Assembly: GCA_900320385.1 (NCBI GenBank) | Contig: ONSD01000019.1 | Coordinates: forward strand, 4,444-68,443 | Length of the DNA stretch: 64,000 nt | Direction: 5' to 3' | DNA from: an uncultured Bacteroidales bacterium | GTDB lineage: Bacteria > Bacteroidota > Bacteroidia > Bacteroidales > UBA932 | Part shown: piece by piece, positions 1 to 15,636 of the stretch | How positions within the stretch are numbered: the first letter of the stretch is position 1 | Layout of the letters: every line of letters begins with the position of its first letter | The notes under the pieces: model-generated | What the model saw: only the letters and a program-made list of their open reading frames with translations | The model's database searches: none | What the model was told of the DNA's origin: nothing | Translations under genes and position numbers: made by a program

Positions 1-1497
1 GTCGACTGGTACAAGGCCATTTCCGACGACCTGCTCTACAGCGTCGCGGTACCCGCCGAGGCTGGTGCCACGAACGGCAGCGTGACCATGAACGCCGCTA
101 CGATGGTGAACACCGGTCTCGAGCTCGCAGCCGCCTACCACAACTACGACCACGCCCTCAAGTACGACATCTCCGGCAACGTAACGTTCCCCAGGAACGT
201 GGTTACCAAACTCGGTACCGGCGAGAGCCGCGTTGACGGTTTTACCAAGACCGAGCAGGGCAAGGAAGTGGGCCAGTTCTACGGTTATGTCTATGAAGGT
301 ATCTTCCAGAGCCAGAGCGAGATCGACAACCATGTCAACGCCCAGGGCAACATCATAACCCAGCAGGGCGCACAGCCCGGCGACGTGGCCTATGCCGACA
401 TCAGCGGCCCCGACGGAGTTCCGGACGGTGAGATCACGACCGACGACCAGACCTATCTGGGAAGCGGCATGCCCGATGTCAACTTCGGTCTCAGCTTCAG
501 GCTGGAATACAAGAACTTCGACCTTTCCGTATCCACCTTCGGCGCACTCGGATTCAAAGTCCTCGACTACATCGACATGGTACTCCACTCCTCGTACGGC
601 GTTACCAACAAGAGTGTGGACCTCATCAAATCCTGGACTCCCGAGAACCCCAGCACCACTATCCCGGCTTCGTACTACAAGACAGGCAGCACGGTCACCA
701 ACGACCTCTTCAGCGCCAGGTTCCTGCAGAACGGCGATTACTGGAAGCTTGCCAACGTCGAACTCGGATACAACTTCAGGGAAGACTGGTTCCACGGCCT
801 GATCAGCGGCGTACGCGTGTACGTATCCGGCCAGAACCTCTTTACGCTTTCGAAGTACCGCGGATACAACATCGACTTCGCAGGCGGCACCTTCACTCCC
901 GGCTACAACTACTGCTCGTACCCGACTCCCCGCACCTTCATGGCCGGCGTCAAGCTCTCGTTCAGGGGCGATGATCCCGCCGCACACGTAGATGCGGATG
1001 CCGCAGCAGCGGCAGCACAGGCCCTCGCCGCAGCGGAAGCCGCAGCAAGGGCGGCCCGTGCCGAGGCAGACAAGGCCAACCGCCGTGCGGAACAGGCTGA
1101 GGCTGCACTTGGCGCCTGCCGCACCGAGAATGCCGAGCTCAGGAACAAGCCCGCCACCGTGGAGAAATACGCTGATTACTTCGACGAACCCTTCATCGCT
1201 TACTTCACCATCGGCAAGAGCGTGCTCTCCGCCAGCGAGGTCGAACACGTGAAGGCCGCTGCCCGCAGGATACTTGCTGGCGGCAACAAGGTACGCTTCA
1301 CCCTCGCAGGCCATGCCGACTCCGGCACCGGCTCGCAGGCACGCAACGAACAGCTCGCAAGGGAGCGCGTGCAGACCGTCTACAACCTCATGAAGGAAAT
1401 GGGCGTGGATCCCGCACTCTTCACCGTCACCTCCAGCGTGGAGGACATATTCTCCACTCCTGAGCTCAACAGGTGTGTAATCGTTGACAAACAGTAA
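1..1497 (+). CDS. susC: SusC/RagA TonB-dependent transporter (5'-truncated by window) fused to a C-terminal coiled coil and OmpA-like peptidoglycan-binding domain
   Basis: Frame is open from base 1 (VDWYKAISDDLLY). SusC C-terminal motifs GIFQS, QPGDVAYADISG, VRVYVSGQNLFT and YPTPRTFMAGVKLSF (F at 961-963) are present. These are followed by an Ala-rich helix and the OmpA_C motif GHADSGTG..N..LARER..V..NRCV. SusD follows. Confidence 0.9.
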   Translation, partial: VDWYKAISDDLLYSVAVPAEAGATNGSVTMNAATMVNTGLELAAAYHNYDHALKYDISGNVTFPRNVVTKLGTGESRVDGFTKTEQGKEVGQFYGYVYEGIFQSQSEIDNHVNAQGNIITQQGAQPGDVAYADISGPDGVPDGEITTDDQTYLGSGMPDVNFGLSFRLEYKNFDLSVSTFGALGFKVLDYIDMVLHSSYGVTNKSVDLIKSWTPENPSTTIPASYYKTGSTVTNDLFSARFLQNGDYWKLANVELGYNFREDWFHGLISGVRVYVSGQNLFTLSKYRGYNIDFAGGTFTPGYNYCSYPTPRTFMAGVKLSFRGDDPAAHVDADAAAAAAQALAAAEAAARAARAEADKANRRAEQAEAALGACRTENAELRNKPATVEKYADYFDEPFIAYFTIGKSVLSASEVEHVKAAARRILAGGNKVRFTLAGHADSGTGSQARNEQLARERVQTVYNLMKEMGVDPALFTVTSSVEDIFSTPELNRCVIVDKQ

Positions 1498-1515
1498 TTC
1501 AAGGAGGACTACAAC

Positions 1516-3288
1516 ATGAAAAAGATACTTGTTATACTCGCGGCCCTGGCCATCATCGGCGGAATGACCGCATGTGAAGACGAACTGAACGTAGTCAACG
1601 TCAACAACCAGACGACATACGACTTCGGCGACGCCCAGGACGAACTGGAAGAAGCCGTCATAGCCTGCTACAACAGGATACGTCTCGAGGGTACCTTCGC
1701 CCGCGTGGGCTACACCATGGATGCCGTCCGCGGCGACGAAGTGTGGAACTCATCGCAGCAGTGGTACCTCCCCTACGACAATTACAATGCTCCGGCCAGC
1801 GACGAAATCGGCAACATGTGGATCTGGCGCGACTGCTACCATGTGGTTAACCGCTGCAACTTCGTGCTGAAGAAGGTGGAAGACGCAAAGCTTTCCGACG
1901 AGGCCTACAATCAGATCAAGGGACAGGCACTGTTCCTCAGGGGCCTCGCCTACTATGAGATAGCCACTTATTATCAGTCCGCCCCGCTCTTCACGGATTA
2001 TTCCCAGTACTCCAGCATGGAGGGGATGTATGCCGAGCAGGCAAGCCTGGACGAACTTATGGACCAGGTGGATTCCGATTTCTCCGAGGCCATGGGCATG
2101 CTCCCTTCGCGCAACAAGGGAGGAGAGTGGGCGAAGGGCCGCGCCACCTGCGGAGCGGCTGCAGGCTATTACGCCCGTTCGCTTATGTTCCGTCACAAAT
2201 ACGACGAAGCCCTCACCGTCCTCAAGGATATCATTTCCGGCAAGTACGGAAGCTACCGCCTCATGGCGGACTATGGCGACAACTTCCGCGAAGGCACCGC
2301 CTATGAGAACAACGACGAAAGCCTCTTCGAGGTGCAGTTCCTCGACTATGGCATGGGCGGATCCGACGAGGAATGGACTCCCGTGAACATCTCGTCCAAC
2401 GCCACCCAGGGCCATGCGGTCGAAAGCAATTACGCTTCGCAGGCTCTCGGCAGCTGGGGCGACCTCGCCGGCGCTCCATGGCTCTACAATCTCTTCAAGG
2501 CTGAAAAGACCACCGACGGCCAGCTCGACCCGAGGCTCTACTGGACTCTGGTAACCTACGAACCCGAATATGATACTTATACCGGGCTCAAGGATGTGGC
2601 TTACCCCGACGGCGACCCGCGCAGCAACGTGGTCTACATGGAAGCCATCAGTTCCACCCCGCGTTCCAACGGCAATCAGGGAGGCATTTCCATCGCCAAG
2701 TTCACCAATGCCCGCAACAACATCTACAGCAGCATCACCACCGGACTGCACTGCGGCGTGAACCTGAGGCTCATGCGCTACAGCGACGTGCTGCTGCGCG
2801 CGGCCGAATGCATCAACGAGGTGAGCGGCCCGAATGCCGAGGCCATAGGCTACATCAACCAGGTGCGCAGGCGTGCCGGGCTCGCCGACATCAGCCTCTC
2901 GGACTTCTCCTCGGCCGACAAGCTCTTCGAGCAGATAGCCAATGTGGAACGCCCGAAGGAATTCGGTTGCGAGAACGGACGCGGCATCGACCTCATCCGC
3001 TGGGGATTCTTCTATGACGAGGGACGCCGGAACCAGCTGGCACAGCATACCAGCTACCACTTCGACGACCCCGACGCAGGAGTGTCAACCGCCGAAGAGA
3101 CCACGGCTACCGCCAGTGACTACTCCATGAAGTACTATACCCCGGGTCATGAGTACTTCATGATCGCCCAGAGCACCATGAACAACAACCAGAGCCTTGT
3201 CGGCAACTCCGCCAACAACAACAGCGACAACAGCTCCTGGTACAGCGGGAACGGCTGGTCCGTGCACCCCGTAGTGGATCTGGACTAA
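1516..3288 (+). CDS. susD: SusD/RagB nutrient-binding lipoprotein
   Basis: Lipoprotein signal (MTAC); SusD motifs GQALFLRGLAY, DPRL, LMRYSDVLLRAAE, INQVRRRAG, ERPKEFGCENGRGIDLIRWG; directly after susC. Confidence 0.95.
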   Translation: MKKILVILAALAIIGGMTACEDELNVVNVNNQTTYDFGDAQDELEEAVIACYNRIRLEGTFARVGYTMDAVRGDEVWNSSQQWYLPYDNYNAPASDEIGNMWIWRDCYHVVNRCNFVLKKVEDAKLSDEAYNQIKGQALFLRGLAYYEIATYYQSAPLFTDYSQYSSMEGMYAEQASLDELMDQVDSDFSEAMGMLPSRNKGGEWAKGRATCGAAAGYYARSLMFRHKYDEALTVLKDIISGKYGSYRLMADYGDNFREGTAYENNDESLFEVQFLDYGMGGSDEEWTPVNISSNATQGHAVESNYASQALGSWGDLAGAPWLYNLFKAEKTTDGQLDPRLYWTLVTYEPEYDTYTGLKDVAYPDGDPRSNVVYMEAISSTPRSNGNQGGISIAKFTNARNNIYSSITTGLHCGVNLRLMRYSDVLLRAAECINEVSGPNAEAIGYINQVRRRAGLADISLSDFSSADKLFEQIANVERPKEFGCENGRGIDLIRWGFFYDEGRRNQLAQHTSYHFDDPDAGVSTAEETTATASDYSMKYYTPGHEYFMIAQSTMNNNQSLVGNSANNNSDNSSWYSGNGWSVHPVVDLD

Positions 3289-3309
3289 TTTGCAAATTAT
3301 TGCTAACTT

Positions 3310-3352
3310 TGTGGAGGCAGGGGCACGCAGCCTCCGCCTCCACATTCTTTTT
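3310..3352 (+). terminator. Hairpin with U-tract after susD (terminator or mRNA-stabilising stem)
   Basis: TGTGGAGGC/GCCTCCACA stem followed by TTCTTTTT, ending just before the GH43 ATG. Confidence 0.6.
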
Positions 3353-3357
3353 GGAAC

Positions 3358-5121
3358 ATGAGATTCTTCAAATATCTTTTCCCCTTCGCCATAGCGGCCG
3401 GCCTTGCCCTTGTTTCCTGCGACAAGGATCCGCAGGAAGGCAGCGGCATCCACACGAAACCGGTGGACGGCGATGAAACAGTCACCCCTTCCACCCAGGA
3501 AAAGAGCGGCTTCACCATGTCGACCGGCTACTGGGCCCCCGCTGTCCGCAAAGTAAACGTGAACGGGGTCGAAAAACTTCGCATGTACTACTGCCTGGTG
3601 CCCTCCAACTGCATAAAGACGGGCTCCCCCGATTTTGACGGCAGCTGGACGGAACGCGCCATCATCGGCATGTGCGAAAGCAGCGATCCGGCCGGAGGCA
3701 GGTGGGAAGACAAGGGATATGTCGTCTGCTCGTCATCCGACAAGGGGCGCGACGGCTATGCCAGGAGCAGCGAAAGCGACTGGAACGCATATTTCTATTA
3801 CAACGCCATCGACCCCACTTATATCGTGAACCCGGCGGGCGACGGCAAGGATTACCTCATCTACGGATCGTGGCACAGCGGCTTCGCCCTCCTGGAGATC
3901 GACCATGTCACCGGCAAGCCCGTGAACGCTCCGGGAGACCCGTGGGCGGGCAGCGCCGCGGAACTCTCTTCCCGCTTCGGGGTGCGCATCGGTACCCGCA
4001 ATTCCAATTCCCGCTGGCAGGGCAGCGAGGCCCCCGAAATCATTTACAAGGACGGTTATTATTATCTGTTCATGGCTTATGACGGCCTGGATGTCCCCTA
4101 CAACACCCGCGTAGTGCGCTCCACAAGCATCGAAGGCCCGTACAAGGACATAACCGGCCGCAATTTCACAAACGGCCGCGGCGACTGCTTCCCCATCGTC
4201 ACCCATCCCTACAAGTTCAGCAAGGGTTACGGCTGGGTGGGCATTTCGCACTGCGCCGTCTTCCCTGAAGAAGGCGGGAGCGAATGGTTCTACATGTCGC
4301 AGGGACGCTTCCCCGTCAACGTGGGGGGCAACGCTTACAGCAACGCCCTCATGATGGGGCACGTGCGCAGGCTGGCATGGGTACCGGCATCTCCCGACAC
4401 ACCTGACGACCTGTGGCCCGTCGCCCTTCCCGAACGCTACGGCGCGGTTCCCCAAAGCCCCGTTTCCAAAGAAGAAATCGCAGGCACCTGGGAGCATATC
4501 AACCTCGGCTACCATTATGCTGCCCAGGACGCATCCGAAGACCTCCTGCTCCTTCCGGACGGCACCATGTCGGGTGCCCTCAACGGCAAGTGGAGTTACG
4601 ACGCCGGCACAGGCCTGCTCACCCTGGACGACAATGCTACTGCCGCACCGGTATGCGTGAAGGTGACACGCGAACTCGACTGGGAAGCATCCCCAAGGGT
4701 GCCGACCCTCGTCTATGCCGGCACCGGGGTCAGCCTCAACGCTACATGGTGGGGCAAGAAGGTGGCGGAGGCCGACGGTTCTGCCATTGCCGCCACGCCG
4801 GGATACACCGCTCCCTCATACAACGACAATTACGTTTCCCTCGCCGCATGGTCGCACCACGACAGCTGGAATCTCGCGAACACCCACGATCCCTCGGTGG
4901 CATACTTCGACGGCTACTATTATGAGTGGGGCACGGACGCCTCCTATGGAAACGCGCATCTCGACGCCGCCAGCGGCAGGCACTTCCCCGGAAAGAGGAG
5001 CCGGAACCTGGTGGACTGGGAATATGTCCCCGGTCCTTTCAACGCCACTCCCCAATGGGCGGCCGACACTCTTAATTCCATACGCAAGCGCATGGGACTC
5101 AAATCGATAGCTAAAGATTAA
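3358..5121 (+). CDS. GH43 endo-1,5-alpha-L-arabinanase-like lipoprotein, circularly permuted
   Basis: Lipobox LVSC. GH43 motifs WAP, NAIDP, YGSWHSG, GSEAP and GISHCAV are followed by the C-terminal domain (..WWGKK). The normally N-terminal WNLANTHDPSV..TDASYGNAH..SRNLVDW block is at the extreme C-terminus. Confidence 0.88.
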   Translation: MRFFKYLFPFAIAAGLALVSCDKDPQEGSGIHTKPVDGDETVTPSTQEKSGFTMSTGYWAPAVRKVNVNGVEKLRMYYCLVPSNCIKTGSPDFDGSWTERAIIGMCESSDPAGGRWEDKGYVVCSSSDKGRDGYARSSESDWNAYFYYNAIDPTYIVNPAGDGKDYLIYGSWHSGFALLEIDHVTGKPVNAPGDPWAGSAAELSSRFGVRIGTRNSNSRWQGSEAPEIIYKDGYYYLFMAYDGLDVPYNTRVVRSTSIEGPYKDITGRNFTNGRGDCFPIVTHPYKFSKGYGWVGISHCAVFPEEGGSEWFYMSQGRFPVNVGGNAYSNALMMGHVRRLAWVPASPDTPDDLWPVALPERYGAVPQSPVSKEEIAGTWEHINLGYHYAAQDASEDLLLLPDGTMSGALNGKWSYDAGTGLLTLDDNATAAPVCVKVTRELDWEASPRVPTLVYAGTGVSLNATWWGKKVAEADGSAIAATPGYTAPSYNDNYVSLAAWSHHDSWNLANTHDPSVAYFDGYYYEWGTDASYGNAHLDAASGRHFPGKRSRNLVDWEYVPGPFNATPQWAADTLNSIRKRMGLKSIAKD

Positions 5122-5134
5122 AAAGATATCCAGA

Positions 5135-7075
5135 ATGAAAAACCTGACCTCTCTCATAGCAGCGGCCCTGTTGGCGGCGGCATGTTCGCAGCCCGCGCAT
5201 ATTTTCGAGATAGCCGCCGACAAACCGGGAGCCGAAATCCAGTCCACGATGTACGGCGTCTTCTTCGAGGACATCAACTTCGGAGCCGACGGCGGCCTTT
5301 ATGCCGACATGGTGAAGAACCGTTCTTTCGAGTTCCCGAATGCCTTCATGGGATGGGAGACTTTCGGCAACGTGGAACTGCGTACCGGCGGGCCTTTCCC
5401 GCGCAACCCGCACTATGTCCACCTCGGCTATTCCGGGCACAGCGACAAATTCTCCGGACTCGAGAACGAAGGATTCTTCGGGATGGGCCTCAAGGAAGGG
5501 GCTAAATATGACTTTTCGGTATATGCCCGCGGAACGGGATCGCTTCGCGTCGCCTTCGTGGACGACGACACCATGGAGGAACGCCAGATGTTCGCCGAAG
5601 ACACCCTGTTCGTCTCCGACCCCGCCTGGAAGAAATACACCCTTGCCATAGAATCTCCCCTTACCATCCAGGACGCGCACCTGCGCCTCACCCTCATAGG
5701 TGACGGTTCCCTCGACATAGAGCACGTTTCGCTCTTCCCGCAGGACAGCTGGAACGGACTGCGCGCCGACCTGGTGAAGGCGCTGGAAGACCTGAAGCCC
5801 GGCGTGTTCCGCTTCCCCGGCGGCTGCATAGTGGAAGGAGCCGAACTCTCTACCCGCTATCAGTGGAAGAACAGCGTGGGCCCGGTGGAGAACCGGCCGC
5901 TGAACGAGAACCGCTGGCATTATACCTTCGATTACAAATTGTTCCCCGACTATTTCCAGAGCTACGGACTCGGATTCTACGAGTATTTCCTGCTCTGCGA
6001 GCATCTGGGAGCCGAACCCCTGCCGGTCATCAGCTGCGGCCTGGCCTGCCAGTTCCAGAACTGGGACAAGCCCGAAGCGCACGTTCCCGTAAAGGACCTT
6101 GGGCCCTACATCCAGGACGCCCTCGACCTGGTCGAATTCGCTAACGGCGCCGTCACCACGAAGTGGGGCAAGGTCCGCGCCGACATGGGTCATCCGGAGC
6201 CTTTCGGCATGAAGTACCTCGCCGTGGGCAACGAGCAGTGGGACTATCTGTATCCCGAGCGCCTCGTCCCCTTCGTGGAAGCGCTCCGCGAAGCCTATCC
6301 CGACCTCAAGATAATAGGCACGTCCGGTCCCGATTCCGAAGGCAAGCAGTTCGAATACCTCTGGCCCGAAATGCGAAGGATAGGGGTCGACCTCGTGGAC
6401 GAGCACTTCTACCGTCCCGAGAGCTGGTTCCTCGCCGAGGGCACCCGCTATGACGATTATCCCCGCGAAGGCCCCAAGGTGTTCGCCGGCGAATATGCAT
6501 GCCACGGCAAAGGCAAGAAGTGGAACCACTTCGAAGCCTCCCTGCTCGAGGCCGCGTTCATGACCGATATCGAGCGTAACGCCGACATAGTGCACATGGC
6601 CACCTACGCACCCCTCTTCGCCCATGTGAAGGGATGGCAGTGGAGGCCGGACCTCATCTGGTTCGACAATCTCGAGACAGTGCGCAGCTGCAGCTATTAC
6701 GTGCAGCAGCTCTACTCCCTCAACAAGGGCACCAACGTGCTGTCCCTCACAATGGACGGCAAGCCCGTGGCCGGGCTCGAAGGCCAGGACGGCCTCTTCG
6801 CCTCGGCCGTATGTGATTCCGGAACCGGAGAGGTGATAGTGAAGATAGCCAACACATCTGCCGAAGCCCAGACCGTCAGGCTGGAATTCAGCGGGGTGAG
6901 CCTCGGTGCAGGCAAGCTTTTCAGCCTTCATTCCGACGACCCCGATGCAGACAACAGCCTCGAAGAACCCTGCAAGGTGGTTCCGGTAGAATCGGCAGTG
7001 AAAGCCAGCGGCAGCAGCCTCGATGCAAAGGTGCCCGCACAGACATTCCAGGTATACAGGATTCCAGTAAAATAA
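5135..7075 (+). CDS. GH51 alpha-L-arabinofuranosidase (lipoprotein signal)
   Basis: YGVFFEDINFGADGGLYA, RFPGGC, GNEQW (acid/base), DEHFY, GEYA (nucleophile), ATYAPLF, WRPDLIWFD. Confidence 0.93.
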   Translation: MKNLTSLIAAALLAAACSQPAHIFEIAADKPGAEIQSTMYGVFFEDINFGADGGLYADMVKNRSFEFPNAFMGWETFGNVELRTGGPFPRNPHYVHLGYSGHSDKFSGLENEGFFGMGLKEGAKYDFSVYARGTGSLRVAFVDDDTMEERQMFAEDTLFVSDPAWKKYTLAIESPLTIQDAHLRLTLIGDGSLDIEHVSLFPQDSWNGLRADLVKALEDLKPGVFRFPGGCIVEGAELSTRYQWKNSVGPVENRPLNENRWHYTFDYKLFPDYFQSYGLGFYEYFLLCEHLGAEPLPVISCGLACQFQNWDKPEAHVPVKDLGPYIQDALDLVEFANGAVTTKWGKVRADMGHPEPFGMKYLAVGNEQWDYLYPERLVPFVEALREAYPDLKIIGTSGPDSEGKQFEYLWPEMRRIGVDLVDEHFYRPESWFLAEGTRYDDYPREGPKVFAGEYACHGKGKKWNHFEASLLEAAFMTDIERNADIVHMATYAPLFAHVKGWQWRPDLIWFDNLETVRSCSYYVQQLYSLNKGTNVLSLTMDGKPVAGLEGQDGLFASAVCDSGTGEVIVKIANTSAEAQTVRLEFSGVSLGAGKLFSLHSDDPDADNSLEEPCKVVPVESAVKASGSSLDAKVPAQTFQVYRIPVK

Positions 7076-7082
7076 AAAAAAT

Positions 7083-9167
7083 ATGGGAAAGTACGATTGG
7101 AAATACGCCAACGTGGGAGGAGCCTCCCGCGTGCTGATCAGGACGGGCGAAGACATCGCCCATCTCGCAGAACTCGACCGCAAGCAGTGGACGGTGCTCA
7201 GCTGCCCGGTCAAGGGCCTTGAATTCGATTCCAGGACCCTTCAACTGCTCGATTCCGACGGAGACGGCCACATACATGTAGACGAAGTGATAGCCGTTTC
7301 GCAGTGGCTCAGCGCCGCCCTCAAGGATCCGGGCATACTCCTCAAAGGCGAGGGAACCCTCGCCCTCGACGCACTTTCCGACAGCGAAGAAGGTGAAAAA
7401 CTGCGCAAATCGGCCCTCCAGATCCTCGGGAACCTCGGAGCGGAAGACTTGAGCACCATCTCGATCGAGCAGACTTCGGACCTGGCGAAGATCTTTGCCG
7501 GAAGCCGTTTCAACGGCGACGGGGTCATCACCCCCACCAGCGCCGAAGACGAGGACCTCAAGGCCCTGATAGGCAAGATTGCCGAGATCAGCGGAGGTGC
7601 TGACGACCGTTCAGGAGAAAAGGGTGTGAACGCCGAACAGATCGAAGCATTCTACACCGCTTGCAGCGACTATGCCGCGTGGAAGGCCGCCGCAGGCAAG
7701 GACACACTCCCCTACGGAGAATCCACCGCAGCCGCCATGGATGCATGCAACGCACTCGCCGACAAGATCGCCGACTTCTTCATGCGCTGCAAGCTCATAG
7801 CCTTCGATTCCGAAGCCGCCCCGGCTGTTGACGTGGATATAGAAAAGATCAAGGCCATAGGAGGAGAAGACCTTTCCGGCAGTTCCGAAAAGATAGCTGC
7901 CCATCCGCTTGCGAGACCTACCGCCGAAGGGCTGCTGCCCCTGGACGGCAGCATCAACCCCGCCTGGCAGGGTGCTTTCGCAAGCCTCAAGGAACTTGTC
8001 TTCGATAAGGATTTCAAGGACAGGAAGGCCATCAGCGAAGCCGACTGGAATACAGTACTCGGCAAGTTCAGCACCTACAAGGAGTGGCTGGGCGCCAAAA
8101 AGGGTGCAGAGGTAGAAGCGCTGGGGCTCGACGAAATCAAAGCCATACTCAAGGCCGACAGGAAGGCAGCCCTAATGGAACTTGTCGAGAGTGACAAGGC
8201 CCTGGAAAGCGAGGCTCTCGGCATCGAAGCCGTGGACAAGCTCCTGCATTACTGCCGCGACTTCTATTCGTTCCTTTGCAACTACGTAGTATTCAGCGAC
8301 TTCTACGATTCCGACAAGAAGGCCGTCTTCCAGGCCGGCAAGCTCTATGTCGACCAACGCTGCTGCGAACTCTGCGTAAGCGTGGACGACATGGGACGTC
8401 ATGCAGACATGCCGGCTCACAGCGGCATGTTCCTCATCTACTGCGACTGCAAATCCAAGCTGGACGGCAGCAAGCGCACCATCGTGGCGGCCGTTACCAA
8501 GGGCAGCATCGACGGCCTGATCCCCGGCAAGAACGGCGTTTTCTACGACCGCGACGGTCTCGACTACGACGCTACCATCACCAAGGTCGTGGATAATCCC
8601 ATCAGTGTGCTCCAGGCATTCTGGTCGCCCTACCGCAAGTTCGGCAAATGGATTTCAGAACGCTTCGGCAAGAAGGCCGCCGACAAGGAAGCCGCAGGAT
8701 TCGATACCATGACCGCCAAGGCTGCTGAAGCCCCCGTACCGGGCGCAGCAGCTGCTCCGGCCGCTCCCAAGTCCTCTTTCGACATCGCCAAGTTCGCCGG
8801 CATATTCGCCGCCATAGGCATGGCCATCGCCTATCTGTCGCAAGCACTCGTCGCCCTGGCCAGGGGAGCATCCAATGCAGGCTGGCTCAAGGTCCTTCTG
8901 GTGATCGCAGCCATCATGCTGGTCATCTCCCTGCCCTCCATGATCCTCGCATGGATCAAGTTGCGCAAGCGCGACGTTGGCCCGGTGCTCAACGCCAACG
9001 GCTGGGCCATCAACGCCCGCTCGTACGTAAGGCCGCGTTTCGGCAAGACCCTGACCAGCGTAGCCAAGTACCCGAAAGTCAAGAAGTCGGGCCGCGGAAC
9101 GGTCATCCTCATCGTCGTCCTGCTCCTGATCCTCGCACTTCTCGCGGTGTACTATTTCTTCCTTTAA
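7083..9167 (+). CDS. Hypothetical EF-hand-containing protein with C-terminal transmembrane helices
   Basis: Canonical 12-residue EF-hand loop DSDGDGHIHVDE at 7251-7286; no signal peptide; three hydrophobic segments near the C-terminus. Confidence 0.8.
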   Translation: MGKYDWKYANVGGASRVLIRTGEDIAHLAELDRKQWTVLSCPVKGLEFDSRTLQLLDSDGDGHIHVDEVIAVSQWLSAALKDPGILLKGEGTLALDALSDSEEGEKLRKSALQILGNLGAEDLSTISIEQTSDLAKIFAGSRFNGDGVITPTSAEDEDLKALIGKIAEISGGADDRSGEKGVNAEQIEAFYTACSDYAAWKAAAGKDTLPYGESTAAAMDACNALADKIADFFMRCKLIAFDSEAAPAVDVDIEKIKAIGGEDLSGSSEKIAAHPLARPTAEGLLPLDGSINPAWQGAFASLKELVFDKDFKDRKAISEADWNTVLGKFSTYKEWLGAKKGAEVEALGLDEIKAILKADRKAALMELVESDKALESEALGIEAVDKLLHYCRDFYSFLCNYVVFSDFYDSDKKAVFQAGKLYVDQRCCELCVSVDDMGRHADMPAHSGMFLIYCDCKSKLDGSKRTIVAAVTKGSIDGLIPGKNGVFYDRDGLDYDATITKVVDNPISVLQAFWSPYRKFGKWISERFGKKAADKEAAGFDTMTAKAAEAPVPGAAAAPAAPKSSFDIAKFAGIFAAIGMAIAYLSQALVALARGASNAGWLKVLLVIAAIMLVISLPSMILAWIKLRKRDVGPVLNANGWAINARSYVRPRFGKTLTSVAKYPKVKKSGRGTVILIVVLLLILALLAVYYFFL

Positions 9168-11853: not shown

Positions 11854-14800
11854 ATGACATTCAAAGAATACAAGGGACTGGATTTGGTAGATGTAGGGAA
11901 CAGGGTACTGCACCATTGGCAGGAGATCCATGCCTTCGAGAAGAGCGTGGAACTGAGGCAGGGAGCACCTGAGTTCATATTCTTTGAAGGTCCGCCGTCG
12001 GCCAACGGCAAACCGGGCATCCATCATGTCATGGCGCGCTCCATCAAGGACGCCGTCTGCCGCTACAAGACGCAGACCGGTTACCAGGTGCGCCGCCGTG
12101 CAGGATGGGACACCCACGGGCTCCCCGTCGAAATAGGCGTCGAGAAGAAGCTCGGCATCCACAAGGAGGACATAGGTACGCGCATCAGCGTGGAAGAATA
12201 CAACGCCACCTGCCGTTCGGAAGTGATGAAATACACCGCCGAATGGGAGAACCTTACCGAAAGGGTCGGCTACTGGGTGGACATGAAAGACCCGTACATC
12301 ACCTATGACAACCGCTATATCGAAACCCTCTGGTATCTGCTGAAGGACATCTACGACAAGGGACTTCTCTACAAGGGATATTCGATTCAGCCTTTCAGCC
12401 CGTCCGACGGCACCGGCCTCAGCAGCCACGAGCTCAACCAGCCCGGCTGCTACAAAGACGTTACCGACACCACCTGCACCGTGCAGTTCGAGATGGTTCC
12501 GGACGATGCCCACAAGGCCCTCTTCGCCGACGGCCCCCTCTTCTTCATAGCATGGACCACCACTCCGTGGACCCTTCCCAGCAACATGGCGCTCTGCGTC
12601 GGGCCAAAGATCGACTACGTGCGCGTGAAGGCGGCCAATCCCTACAGCTCGGAGCCGGCAGTGTACCTGGTAGCCCAGGCTTTGGTAGAAACCTGGTTCG
12701 GGAAGATCCCGCACGAAGTGCTCCCCGGCATCGTCAAGGGCTCTGAACTCACCGGGCTGCATTACAAGCAGCTTATCCCCTGGTTCAAATCGGCCCAGGC
12801 GGGCAAGGCCTTCGAAGTAATAAGCGGAGACTATGTAACCACCGAGGAAGGAACCGGCATCGTGCACATCGCCGGCACCTTCGGCGCCGACGACAAGCGC
12901 GTGAGCGAGCAGAACGGGATCGCAGCCATGATGGTCCTCGACAAGGCCGGTGTACGCCAGGCCCAGGTGGACCGCGAAGGCCGCTTCTACCGCCTCGAAG
13001 ACCTCGACCCGCAGTATGTCAAGGACTGCGTCGATCCCTCTTACGCCGCGTTTGCCGGCCGTTATGTGAAGAATGCGTTCGACGACACGCTTCCCTCCGA
13101 CGCCCCCACCCTCGACGTGGACCTCTGCGTCATGCTCAAGCAGGAGGGCAAGGCCTTCAGGATACAGAAGCACGTGCACAGCTACCCCCACAGCTGGCGC
13201 ACCGACAAGCCGGTGCTCTATTATCCGCTGGACGCCTGGTTCATCAAGACTACCGCCGTCAAGGACAAGATGGTGGAACTCAACAAACAGATCAGCTGGA
13301 AGCCGGAATCCACCGGTACCGGCAGGTTCGGACAGTGGCTGGAGAACATCCAGGACTGGAACCTCAGCCGCAGCCGTTTCTGGGGCACCCCCCTGCCGAT
13401 TTGGCGTACCGAAGACGGCCGGGAGGAAATCTGCATCGGCAGCGTAAAACAGTTCTTCAACGAGATCGACAAGGCCGTGGAAGCCGGTATCATGCCGTCC
13501 AACCCGCTAAGGGACAAGGGCTTCGACCCTGAAGACATGAGCCTCGCCAACTACGACAGGATAGATCTCCACAGGCCGTATGTCGACAATATCTTCCTCG
13601 TAAGCCCCAGCGGCAAGAAGATGACCCGCGAGACCGACCTCATCGACGTATGGTTCGATTCCGGATCCATGCCCTATGCCCAGACGGGCCTGCGCGGACT
13701 CGCTTCCCCCGATTTCGGCGTAACCGCCGACTTCATCGCCGAAGGCGTCGACCAGACCCGCGGCTGGTTCTACACCCTGCATGCCATCCATACCATGGTG
13801 AGCGGGACCCCGGCTTTCAAGAGGGTAATCTCCAACGGCCTCGTGCTCGACAAGGACGGCAACAAGATGAGCAAGCGTCTCGGCAATGCCGTCGATCCTT
13901 TCCTCGAGCTGGACAAATACGGCGCGGACGCCCTCCGCTGGTACATGCTCACCAACGCCCAGCCCTGGGACAACCTCCGCTTCGACGAACTGGGAGTGGA
14001 TGAGGTGCGCCGCAAATTCTTCGGAACCCTCTACAACACATATTCCTTCTTCGCACTGTACGCCAACGTGGACGGTTTCGATCCCGCCGGCGCCAGGCAT
14101 ATCCCGTATTCCGACAGGCCGGAAATCGACCGCTGGATAATCTCCAGGCTCAACACCCTCATCGACGAGGTGCGCTCCGCCTACGAAGACTACGACATCA
14201 CCCTGGCAGGCCGCCTGATCCAGGACTTCGTGTGCGACCACGTATCCAACTGGTACGTCCGCCTCAACCGCAAGCGTTTCTGGGGCGGAGAACTCTCCGC
14301 GGACAAACTGGCCGCTTACGAAACCCTCTATGAGGTGCTCAGGGACGTTGCCGTGCTCATGGCGCCCATCGCCCCGTTCTACAGCGACCAGCTTTACAGG
14401 GACCTCGTTCCGGCGGCGGAAAGCGTACACTTCACCCTCATGCCCGAGAGCAACCATGTCCTGGTGGACAAGGACCTCGAAGAACGCATGGAACTCGCCC
14501 AGAAAGCCACTTCGCTCGTCCTAGCGCTCCGCCGCAAGGTCAACATCAAGGTGCGCCAGCCCCTCAGCAAGCTGGTTATCCCGGTGCTCTCCGACAAGGT
14601 GCGTTCCCAGTTCGAACAGGTCAAGGACCTCATACTCGGCGAAGTGAACGTCAAGGAGGCCGAATTCATTACCGATACGACCGGAATCATCACCAAGAAG
14701 ATAAAACCGAATTTCCGCTCGCTGGGAAAGAAATACGGCCCGCGAATGAAGGAAATCGCCGCCGCATTCGCTAAACTGGACCAGGCCACCATTTCCGCCA

Positions 14801-15636
14801 TACAGAGCGCCGGCAACTACAGCCTGCAACTCGACGGCGGGGCCGTGGACCTCGCTCCCGAAGACTACGAGATCAGTTCAGAGGATATGCCGGGATGGTT
14901 CGTAGCTACCGAAGGCCAGCTGACCATAGCGCTCGACGTGGAAGTCAGCGATGCACTGCGTGCCGAAGGCGTCGCCCGCGAACTCATCAACCGTATACAG
15001 AACCTGCGCAAGGACAGCGGTTTCGAACTTACCGACAAGATAGCCGTGACAATTTGTGCCGACGGTGCAGCGTATGACGAGATCGCGGCATCTTTGCAGC
15101 AGTACAAGGATTATATCTGCGCCCAGACACTTGCCCTGGCGCTCGACCTCCGCAAGGGAGGGGACGCCGGCCGCGAGGTGGACTGGGATGAAGGAACCAT
15201 CAGGATAGAAGTAAACAAAACAGATTCCATAACTATGACAGAAGAGACCAAAACCCGTTATACCGACGAAGAACTCGCCGAGTTCCGCGTCATTATCGAG
15301 GGTATGCTCGAAAAGGCAAGGGCCGAGTACGACACCCTCCGCAAGGTGGTGATGCACGGTGGCAACAATGACATCGAGGACACTTCGCCCACTTTCAAGA
15401 CCGTCGAGGACGACGGTGCCAACCAGCTTACCAAGGAGGAAGCCAGCCAGCTCGCTCAGAGGCAGTACAAGTTCATCAAGAACCTGGAAGCCGCCCTCGT
15501 ACGCATCGAGAACAAGACATACGGCATCTGCCGCGTCACCGGAAAGCTGATCCCGAAGGAGAGGCTACGCCTGGTGCCGCACGCCACCCTCACGGTAGAG
15601 GCTAAGGAGATGCTTGCAAAACAGGGCAAGAACTGA
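11854..15636 (+). CDS. ileS: Isoleucine--tRNA ligase (type 2) with in-frame C-terminal DksA/TraR-family domain
   Basis: GPPSANGKPGIHH, GWDTHGLP, WTTTPWTL, DWNLSRSRFWG, EGVDQTRGWF, KMSKR. There is no stop before the DksA-like region starting at 15235. Confidence 0.93.
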   Translation: MTFKEYKGLDLVDVGNRVLHHWQEIHAFEKSVELRQGAPEFIFFEGPPSANGKPGIHHVMARSIKDAVCRYKTQTGYQVRRRAGWDTHGLPVEIGVEKKLGIHKEDIGTRISVEEYNATCRSEVMKYTAEWENLTERVGYWVDMKDPYITYDNRYIETLWYLLKDIYDKGLLYKGYSIQPFSPSDGTGLSSHELNQPGCYKDVTDTTCTVQFEMVPDDAHKALFADGPLFFIAWTTTPWTLPSNMALCVGPKIDYVRVKAANPYSSEPAVYLVAQALVETWFGKIPHEVLPGIVKGSELTGLHYKQLIPWFKSAQAGKAFEVISGDYVTTEEGTGIVHIAGTFGADDKRVSEQNGIAAMMVLDKAGVRQAQVDREGRFYRLEDLDPQYVKDCVDPSYAAFAGRYVKNAFDDTLPSDAPTLDVDLCVMLKQEGKAFRIQKHVHSYPHSWRTDKPVLYYPLDAWFIKTTAVKDKMVELNKQISWKPESTGTGRFGQWLENIQDWNLSRSRFWGTPLPIWRTEDGREEICIGSVKQFFNEIDKAVEAGIMPSNPLRDKGFDPEDMSLANYDRIDLHRPYVDNIFLVSPSGKKMTRETDLIDVWFDSGSMPYAQTGLRGLASPDFGVTADFIAEGVDQTRGWFYTLHAIHTMVSGTPAFKRVISNGLVLDKDGNKMSKRLGNAVDPFLELDKYGADALRWYMLTNAQPWDNLRFDELGVDEVRRKFFGTLYNTYSFFALYANVDGFDPAGARHIPYSDRPEIDRWIISRLNTLIDEVRSAYEDYDITLAGRLIQDFVCDHVSNWYVRLNRKRFWGGELSADKLAAYETLYEVLRDVAVLMAPIAPFYSDQLYRDLVPAAESVHFTLMPESNHVLVDKDLEERMELAQKATSLVLALRRKVNIKVRQPLSKLVIPVLSDKVRSQFEQVKDLILGEVNVKEAEFITDTTGIITKKIKPNFRSLGKKYGPRMKEIAAAFAKLDQATISAIQSAGNYSLQLDGGAVDLAPEDYEISSEDMPGWFVATEGQLTIALDVEVSDALRAEGVARELINRIQNLRKDSGFELTDKIAVTICADGAAYDEIAASLQQYKDYICAQTLALALDLRKGGDAGREVDWDEGTIRIEVNKTDSITMTEETKTRYTDEELAEFRVIIEGMLEKARAEYDTLRKVVMHGGNNDIEDTSPTFKTVEDDGANQLTKEEASQLAQRQYKFIKNLEAALVRIENKTYGICRVTGKLIPKERLRLVPHATLTVEAKEMLAKQGKN
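15235..15636 (+). CDS. DksA/TraR-family transcription factor (in frame with ileS; may also initiate independently)
   Basis: TRYTDEELAEFR, RQYKFIKNLEAALVRIENKTYGICRVTGKLIPKERLRLVPHATL (Bacteroidetes DksA-like, single Cys); ileS-dksA-lspA order. Confidence 0.85.
   Translation: MTEETKTRYTDEELAEFRVIIEGMLEKARAEYDTLRKVVMHGGNNDIEDTSPTFKTVEDDGANQLTKEEASQLAQRQYKFIKNLEAALVRIENKTYGICRVTGKLIPKERLRLVPHATLTVEAKEMLAKQGKN

Follow-up and report, generated by a model that had tools for sequence, protein, structure and literature searches.

The DNA analysed here, hereafter the window, is a 64,000-nucleotide stretch (positions 4,444 to 68,443, forward strand) of contig ONSD01000019.1 in assembly GCA_900320385.1 of an uncultured, gut-type Bacteroidales bacterium (UBA932). 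A gene near its start (3358–5121) encodes a 587-residue member of glycoside hydrolase family 43 (GH43) and is circularly permuted relative to genes of the BT0360 type, named after the surface endo-α-1,5-arabinanase of the Bacteroides thetaiotaomicron arabinan polysaccharide utilization locus (PUL; PMC8002723). Its open reading frame (ORF) encodes, in order, a lipoprotein signal, a linker, blades II–V of the catalytic β-propeller, the accessory GH43_C domain, a 16-residue linker, blade I and the stop codon. The parts of this gene and the SusC, SusD and GH51 genes beside it all lie on the forward strand.

Architecture of the permuted gene and its locus

The signal peptide (residues 1–21; 3358–3420), with lipobox LVSC and Cys21, was read directly from the translation and has a predicted local distance difference test (pLDDT) score below 50 in the AlphaFold2 model. 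The tether that follows (residues 22–53, CDKDPQEGSGIHTKPVDGDE...EKSGFT; 3421–3516) is homologous to the N-terminal linker of one subclade of normal-order proteins (P0091, P0051, P0068 and that of genome G007). The tether is polymorphic, as 577-residue variants such as that of GCA_017392995.1 (locus L058) carry an in-frame 10-codon deletion at residues 39–48 (window 3472–3501). At the N-junction (residues 50–59, SGFT-MSTG-YW; 3505–3534) the tether meets the start of blade II; the corresponding sequence in a second permuted lineage is SGYT-ISPG-FW. Blades II–V (residues 54–345; 3517–4392) contain Asp152 in the motif NAIDP (3811–3813) and Glu224 in GSEAP (4027–4029), both invariant in alignments of 59–67 rows. 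The GH43_C lipocalin-like β domain (residues 358–466; 4429–4755; Pfam PF16369, 47.4 bits against a cut-off of 23.4; pLDDT 86–98) is now an insert between blades V and I. Proteins of normal order end with GKKV plus one residue. In the window protein, WWGKKV (ending at residue 469) is followed directly by the C-junction and second linker (residues 470–485, AEADGSAIAATPGYTA; 4765–4812), which aligns with the segment preceding blade I in normal proteins; its equivalent in the second lineage is LNSDGSAIEADPSWTA. The relocated blade I with its trailing helix and the stop codon (residues 486–587; 4813–5121) includes Asp511 in NTHDP (4888–4890), and His510, Asp511 and Pro512 are invariant in 67 rows. 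The frame closes with MGLKSIAKD and the stop codon at 5121. In GH43 enzymes an aspartate acts as general base, a second aspartate as pKa modulator and a glutamate as general acid (PMC11813348); these roles are assigned here to Asp511, Asp152 and Glu224, respectively. The positions and residues given in an earlier note on this DNA hold throughout (Met54 of MSTGYWAP at 3517, Asp152, Glu224, the end of WWGKK at 4761, Asp511 and the stop at 5121), as does its claim that all three catalytic acids are kept.

Comparison with the Pfam family Glyco_hydro_43 (PF04616) gave 85.3 bits against a cut-off of 32.2, with a match that does not run collinearly from blade I. The main stretch begins at profile position 49 with residue 42, while the C-terminal block alone (residues 509–569) matches profile positions 10–61. 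The other seven GH43-family genes of the same genome start mostly at profile positions 1–9, and one at 28. Residues 1–45 comprise only the signal peptide and disordered linker (pLDDT below 50), so no blade I is hidden at the N-terminus, and an intact N-terminal blade I is ruled out. Pfam thus reports merely a truncated GH43 domain, which illustrates how collinear profile annotation can hide such rearrangements.

Upstream of the GH43 gene are the 3' part of a SusC-like transporter gene with a C-terminal OmpA-like extension (1–1497; OmpA 29.4 bits in the window frame) and a SusD-like gene (1516–3288; Pfam SusD_RagB 7e-41, SusD-like_3 1.2e-22). Downstream, 14 nt after the GH43 stop, a GH51 α-L-arabinofuranosidase gene begins (5135–7075; Pfam ASD1_dom 5e-60, Alpha-L-AF_C 8.5e-32). 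The GH43 gene thus has the attributes of a Bacteroidota PUL enzyme: it is co-oriented with upstream SusC and SusD genes, carries a lipoprotein signal as read from the sequence, and has a GH51 gene downstream.

Permuted order, recurrence and descent

BLASTP comparison with the nearest normal homologue, P0004 (563 residues), showed the two swapped diagonals that the earlier note had expected of a dot-plot. Residues 55–469 match P0004 residues 154–562 with 71% identity, and residues 483–585 match P0004 residues 49–151 with 61% identity (E 8e-35). The swapped segments are clean, with only a few unmatched residues at each junction against P0004 and the other nearest homologues, in keeping with the claim that joining the ends restores the canonical order with essentially no residues lost. 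The same relation to a normal-order partner was found with 119 of the 119 nearest proteins beyond the gene's own 90% identity cluster. The BT0360 equivalog profile NF049889 of NCBIfam matches the window protein in two stretches with 643.8 bits (cut-off 600) and P0004 in one stretch with 700.3 bits, so the earlier assignment to the BT0360 type was right. The circular permutation of a BT0360-type GH43 gene is confirmed.

Gene neighbourhoods in three genomes of the same genus (G001, G013 and G007) have a normal-order gene directly behind orthologous SusC and SusD genes. Their SusD proteins are 69–72% identical to that of the window, about as diverged as the GH43 proteins are. Because the GH43 genes share the same SusC-SusD slot and the SusD proteins are equally diverged, the permuted gene is the positional orthologue of the normal gene. 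Across the SusD genes that lie upstream of normal GH43 genes in relatives, identity to the window SusD is 69–73%. The window GH51 protein has no match in G001 and G013, and in G007 the only match is a 28%-identical GH51-like protein encoded just downstream of the GH43 gene.

The earlier note had left room for an artefact of assembly. The host genome is indeed a fragmented, metagenome-type assembly (171 contigs, 77% complete), a point in favour of an assembly or binning artefact. However, the 90% cluster of the permuted protein holds 20 distinct sequences from NCBI, ENA, JGI and Logan. In seven other records the ORF is intact and the gene order is SusC-SusD-GH43(permuted)-GH51 throughout the portion that each contig covers. 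The permuted locus was assembled in ERZ28594531, ERZ28594754, ERZ27318127, ERZ1043200 and GCA_017392995.1, where assembler naming styles differ. Since the identical architecture recurs in many independent samples and assemblers, and also in a diverged second lineage, an artefact is excluded and its residual probability is negligible.

The second lineage was reached through an exhaustive search of cluster representatives, which yielded a 256-residue fragment (P0153) crossing the junction. The cluster of P0153 contains the full-length protein P0285 (599 residues). This protein shares 67% identity with the one encoded in the window and runs collinearly with it over residues 1–586; the search of relatives proposed in the earlier note thus produced a further permuted form. 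Both lineages share the junctions SG[FY]T-[MI]S[TP]G-[YF]WAP and WWGKKV-xxx-DGSAI. In both, the stop codon lies a few residues past MGLKSI, and an orthologous GH51 gene (72% identical) begins 14 nt on. Phylogenetic analysis with IQ-TREE placed the two permuted proteins in one clade (support 100/99) nested among normal BT0360-type proteins, and separate trees of blade I and of blades II–V again gave the pair as sisters. The shared junctions and the single clade indicate that the rearrangement happened once and was kept through substantial divergence.

The permuted form is rare, and only two narrow lineages are known. The back-translated pattern WWGKKV-xxx-DGSAI had no match in a scan of one genome per GTDB species, in which the window's own genome is possibly not included. 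Among 400 other species of the same genus, the blade-I block was found in 30 and a junction-spanning match in none. Scanning of JGI metagenomes with a junction alignment returned 41 loci, all of them normal genes or 3' remnants. The loci L031, L039 and L029, which seemed to span the junction, proved to be normal genes. L040 was likewise rejected: 28 nt beyond a normal BT0360-type gene (2926–4587) lies a different GH43 gene (4615–4929) with its own signal peptide, and tblastn reads across the two adjacent genes, imitating a junction-spanning match. The junction is likewise absent among cluster representatives of the ESM Atlas: clusters retrieved by a shape search align up to model residues ~470–496 (one to 549) and none through the C-terminus, and an ESM Atlas feature search gave leads only, all scoring below 0.9.

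An aminotransferase gene beside the second permuted PUL (L016:26–1210) is 76–78% identical to genes of several other species of the genus and matches the window's genome more poorly (E 5e-150 against 1e-208). The two hosts may therefore not be closest relatives, which hints at PUL transfer, although one such marker is too little to decide between transfer and vertical descent.

Predicted fold, constraint and function

In a combined MAFFT alignment, blade-I fragments fell on internal blades whenever blade II–V fragments were included. In view of this misplacement, full-length AlphaFold2 models were built on alignment rows covering blades II–V and GH43_C only, and blade I was modelled as a separate chain with its own alignment. 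The full-length model of the window protein has a pLDDT of 82.2 and a predicted template modelling score (pTM) of 0.85, and that of P0285 has 81.7 and 0.84, respectively; the blade-I strands reach pLDDT 79–91 in the full-length model. Structurally, residues 54–470 of the model best match the solved two-domain arabinanases Abn2 (2x8f, B. subtilis), YxiA (3lv4), TpABN (4kc7, Thermotoga) and AbnA (5ho0, Geobacillus) from their residues ~89–115 on, with Z scores of 25–28 and root-mean-square deviations of 2.5–3.2 Å over 350–369 residues; for chains that align from residues ~90–99 to 470, Z is ~27 and the deviation 2.5 Å over ~352 residues. Blades II–V and the C-terminal β domain thus superpose, although sequence identity is only ~26%. 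The first 90–115 residues of the solved enzymes lack a collinear partner because blade I of the model consists of residues 486–587. Complete five-bladed propellers align by rotation (model residues 55–559, Z ~19), so that the C-terminal block occupies the position of the fifth blade. Profile alignment of the block places its HDP on the N-terminal HDP general-base motif of CjArb43A, ABN-TS and GsAbnB.

Two-chain models were computed from residues 55–469 and 470–587, each with its own 67-row alignment, together with three controls. The interaction prediction score from aligned errors (ipSAE) was 0.94, against 0.00 for the best of the three controls. The mark used for this score is reached by 58 of 80 solved complexes and by 2 of 110 mismatched pairs, counts that apply only roughly to custom alignments such as these. 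Across the runs contact agreement was at least 84% and partner pLDDT at least 84. The modelled contacts of blade I are with blade II (56–65), blade V (298–336), Asp152, Ala225 and GH43_C (440–449). The two-chain result may reflect likeness to solved GH43 structures, the fold being a known one. The protein is thus predicted to form a closed five-bladed β-propeller with blade I between blades V and II, and the AlphaFold modelling suggested in the earlier note agrees with the closure envisaged there.

Sequence comparisons within the species gave ratios of non-synonymous to synonymous substitution rates (dN/dS) of 0.01–0.07; the difference to L058, for example, comprises 32 synonymous changes and 1 non-synonymous change. 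Between the permuted lineages, whose synonymous sites are nearly saturated, the ratio is 0.17 for blades II–V, 0.13 for GH43_C and 0.23 for blade I. The permuted form is under purifying selection, blade I included. Recurrence in independent assemblies, the second lineage, this constraint and the models that close the propeller together support the earlier proposal of a natural permutant.

An alternative in which the C-terminal block is the dead remnant of a second gene, accidentally fused and lying outside an incomplete propeller, is highly improbable. Such an accident has parallels in the occurrence of a second GH43 gene 28 nt behind a normal gene in L040 and of gene remnants in related PULs (L049). 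Nevertheless, the block is blade I of the same subfamily (61–68% identity, with the specific inserts present), it has been under purifying selection across lineages that are 67% identical, it is modelled within the ring between blades V and II, and the protein contains no other blade I.

The gene is very probably an inherited circular permutant, of single origin, of a BT0360-type GH43 endo-α-1,5-arabinanase, and its product most likely an active surface lipoprotein of an arabinan PUL (SusC-SusD-GH43-GH51). In the proposed arrangement, blade I would be folded in between blades V and II, completing the five-bladed propeller and setting the general base Asp511 beside Asp152 and Glu224, a placement with which the usual inverting mechanism could operate. 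The GH43_C domain would become an insert within the propeller and the membrane tether would attach at blade II. The blocks of the permuted protein are 64–73% identical, one by one, to those of hundreds of proteins named 'arabinan endo-1,5-alpha-L-arabinosidase' at source, and it resembles BT0360-type proteins in exceeding the NF049889 cut-off and in having GH43_C, a lipoprotein signal and SusC, SusD and GH51 neighbours. It differs from them in that blade I and the general base come after GH43_C, which is internal rather than terminal, and in that the tether enters blade II.

Several points weigh against an intact arabinanase. The blade-I loops at residues 489–495 and 529–541 have pLDDT scores below 50, and blade I of the full-length models had alignment rows from only the two permuted lineages. 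The modelled proximity of Asp511 to Asp152 and Glu224 is derived from contact lists and alignments. In addition, blade I is more diverged than blades II–V predict. In pairs of normal proteins that are 64–74% identical in blades II–V, the identity of blade I minus that of blades II–V is −1.5 ± 4.1 points, whereas for the two permuted lineages against normal proteins it is −8.1 and −7.2 points. The excess divergence includes V509T, which adjoins the catalytic base, so that activity or specificity may have shifted.

Compared with each other, the two permuted lineages show a normal gap of −1.3 points. Taken together with the large gaps to normal proteins, this indicates that substitutions came in a burst on the stem branch of the permuted clade, after which constraint returned. 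At positions conserved in at least 90% of normal proteins, the permuted lineages share the derived changes V509T, D491N, V568A, F102I/L and H165D, and residue 102 is among the modelled contacts of blade I. This burst, with the shared replacements, would fit a protein that folds as described and is no longer an endo-arabinanase, having become a weak surface glycan-binding protein or acquired an altered specificity or mode of action. Such a change of function is considered quite unlikely, as the three catalytic acids and their motifs are retained in both lineages, dN/dS is low in every block, and the BT0360 equivalog cut-off is passed. Moreover, this is the sole BT0360-type gene found in the 77%-complete genome, and it occupies the enzyme slot of the PUL.

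The move itself may have been adaptive rather than neutral, although this is judged unlikely. Moving the attachment of the tether to blade II from the segment preceding blade I, which packs on GH43_C, would re-orient the active-site face. The orientation to the membrane and the SusCD transporter would then change, possibly altering the hand-over of arabinan fragments, and the changes within blade I and along its interface (V509T, F102I/L, H165D) would represent tuning after the move.

Origin, precedents and flanking genes

An N-terminal module, GYTPIKPxSTGxWxGxAAEP..DGKTIPxFxDDY, is kept in 35 of 165 normal proteins, and the window signal peptide and tether resemble those of the normal subclade that carries it. 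In the permuted proteins the module is found in two halves on either side of blades II–V and GH43_C, as SG[FY]T..S[TP]G[YF]W at the N-junction and as AE.DGS...T.P..ND.Y after WWGKKV. The earlier note had taken the likeness of SGFT to the PGYT before the moved block as a possible scar of duplication. That interpretation is not specifically supported and was set aside, the two motifs being better read as the two ends of one split module. Immediately before G[YF]WAP, every one of the 165 normal proteins has an aromatic residue or Cys, where the permuted ones have Thr or Pro. At the DNA level, the module of G007 (ACC GGC AAC TGG AGC GGC AAG) is similar to the N-junction (ACC GGC TAC TGG) and also to the C-junction (TGG TGG GGC AAG).

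The rearrangement was a single event in an ancestor of the two lineages, now 67% identical. This ancestor would have carried the module GYTPIKPxSTGxWxGxAAEP..DGKTIP. The starting point may have been a duplication or, as in G019 and G405, a tandem gene pair; trimming at short stretches of likeness (STGxW with GYW, and WxGK with WWGKK) would have followed, and the trailing copy of blades II–V would have been lost up to the GH51 gene. Three points tell against this route. The junction similarities are short and are drawn across species; a DNA repeat scan of positions 3200–5400 detected no scar of duplication, only short repeats at chance level; and no tandem-duplicated intermediate was found among longer proteins, where only two matches (P0323 and P0324, of which P0324 was compared) were obtained. 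This last negative result is weak evidence. P0324 was rejected as an intermediate, having normal order and extra C-terminal domains.

Tandem pairs of BT0360-type genes were observed in the same genus on contig C109 of G019 (L006, L008) and contig C214 of G405, one copy having a long N-terminal extension (985-codon open frame). Such pairs lend themselves to another origin, a chimera of neighbouring BT0360-type paralogues in which the upstream gene contributed blades II–V and GH43_C and the downstream gene blade I. The greater than expected divergence of blade I from normal blade I would fit such a chimera, as would the nearest normal rows, which are P0022 and P0013 for blade I and P0042 and P0008 for blades II–V. 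On the other hand, both blocks fall within the same BT0360-type radiation, where the backbone is unresolved, the blade-I tree comprises only 99 columns, and the normal gap between the permuted lineages (−1.3) fits a stem burst equally well. A rearrangement of a single gene or of a fresh duplicate is preferred, and the chimera is a less likely though reasonable alternative.

In relatives, the last ~55 codons of a normal BT0360-type gene (...NATWWGKKVQ) persist beside an opposite-strand GH51 gene at L049:2725–3099, and likewise in L055 and L056. These remnants indicate past breakage and rearrangement of the relatives' arabinan PULs at the BT0360-type gene.

Natural circular permutations of enzymes are rare. 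The literature searched describes no permuted GH43 enzyme, arabinanase or five-bladed propeller glycoside hydrolase. The nearest precedent among glycoside hydrolases is found in GH70, where the naturally permuted glucansucrases and GtfB-type enzymes coexist with the non-permuted GtfC and GtfD types (PMC9732880). As in GH70, the fold and the catalytic residues are kept while the order of segments is rotated. GH70 differs in having a (β/α)8 barrel and large, old permuted groups, whereas here a blade of a five-bladed propeller has moved across an accessory domain. Engineered propeller permutants, WRAP-T and Pizza, tolerate new termini, even between blades without 'Velcro' strand exchange (PMC8458387). 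Unlike these designed, symmetric and non-catalytic proteins, the window protein is natural, asymmetric and predicted to be catalytic, with a domain inserted at the former termini.

The present case is unusually clean, as the whole catalytic-base blade has crossed the accessory domain and close normal orthologues stand at the same position in sister species. Persistence in two diverged lineages shows that the permuted form has withstood selection. Matched natural pairs of this kind offer a means of studying the effects of propeller closure, folding order and domain insertion on stability and catalysis, and also serve questions concerning the point of lipoprotein tethering in PULs and the origin of permutations in genomes.

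Other features of the locus are as follows. The identical locus L012 contains the complete SusC-like gene (397–4140), which encodes 1247 residues and includes CarboxypepD_reg and Plug domains; its SusC counterpart in the second permuted lineage encodes 1062 residues with no OmpA match on record. The 69-nt gap between the SusD and GH43 genes holds an inverted repeat at 3310–3344, with 15-nt arms that are 87% complementary and a 5-nt loop. After the GH51 gene, a 694-residue ORF lacking a Pfam family (7083–9167) is kept in all loci of the window's species, and its place in the second permuted lineage is occupied by a hybrid two-component regulator (L016:13801–17325). Farther downstream, a 1260-residue ORF (11854–15636) has isoleucyl-tRNA synthetase domains and, at its C-terminus, a DksA/TraR zinc finger (residues 1222–1251, 30.2 bits).

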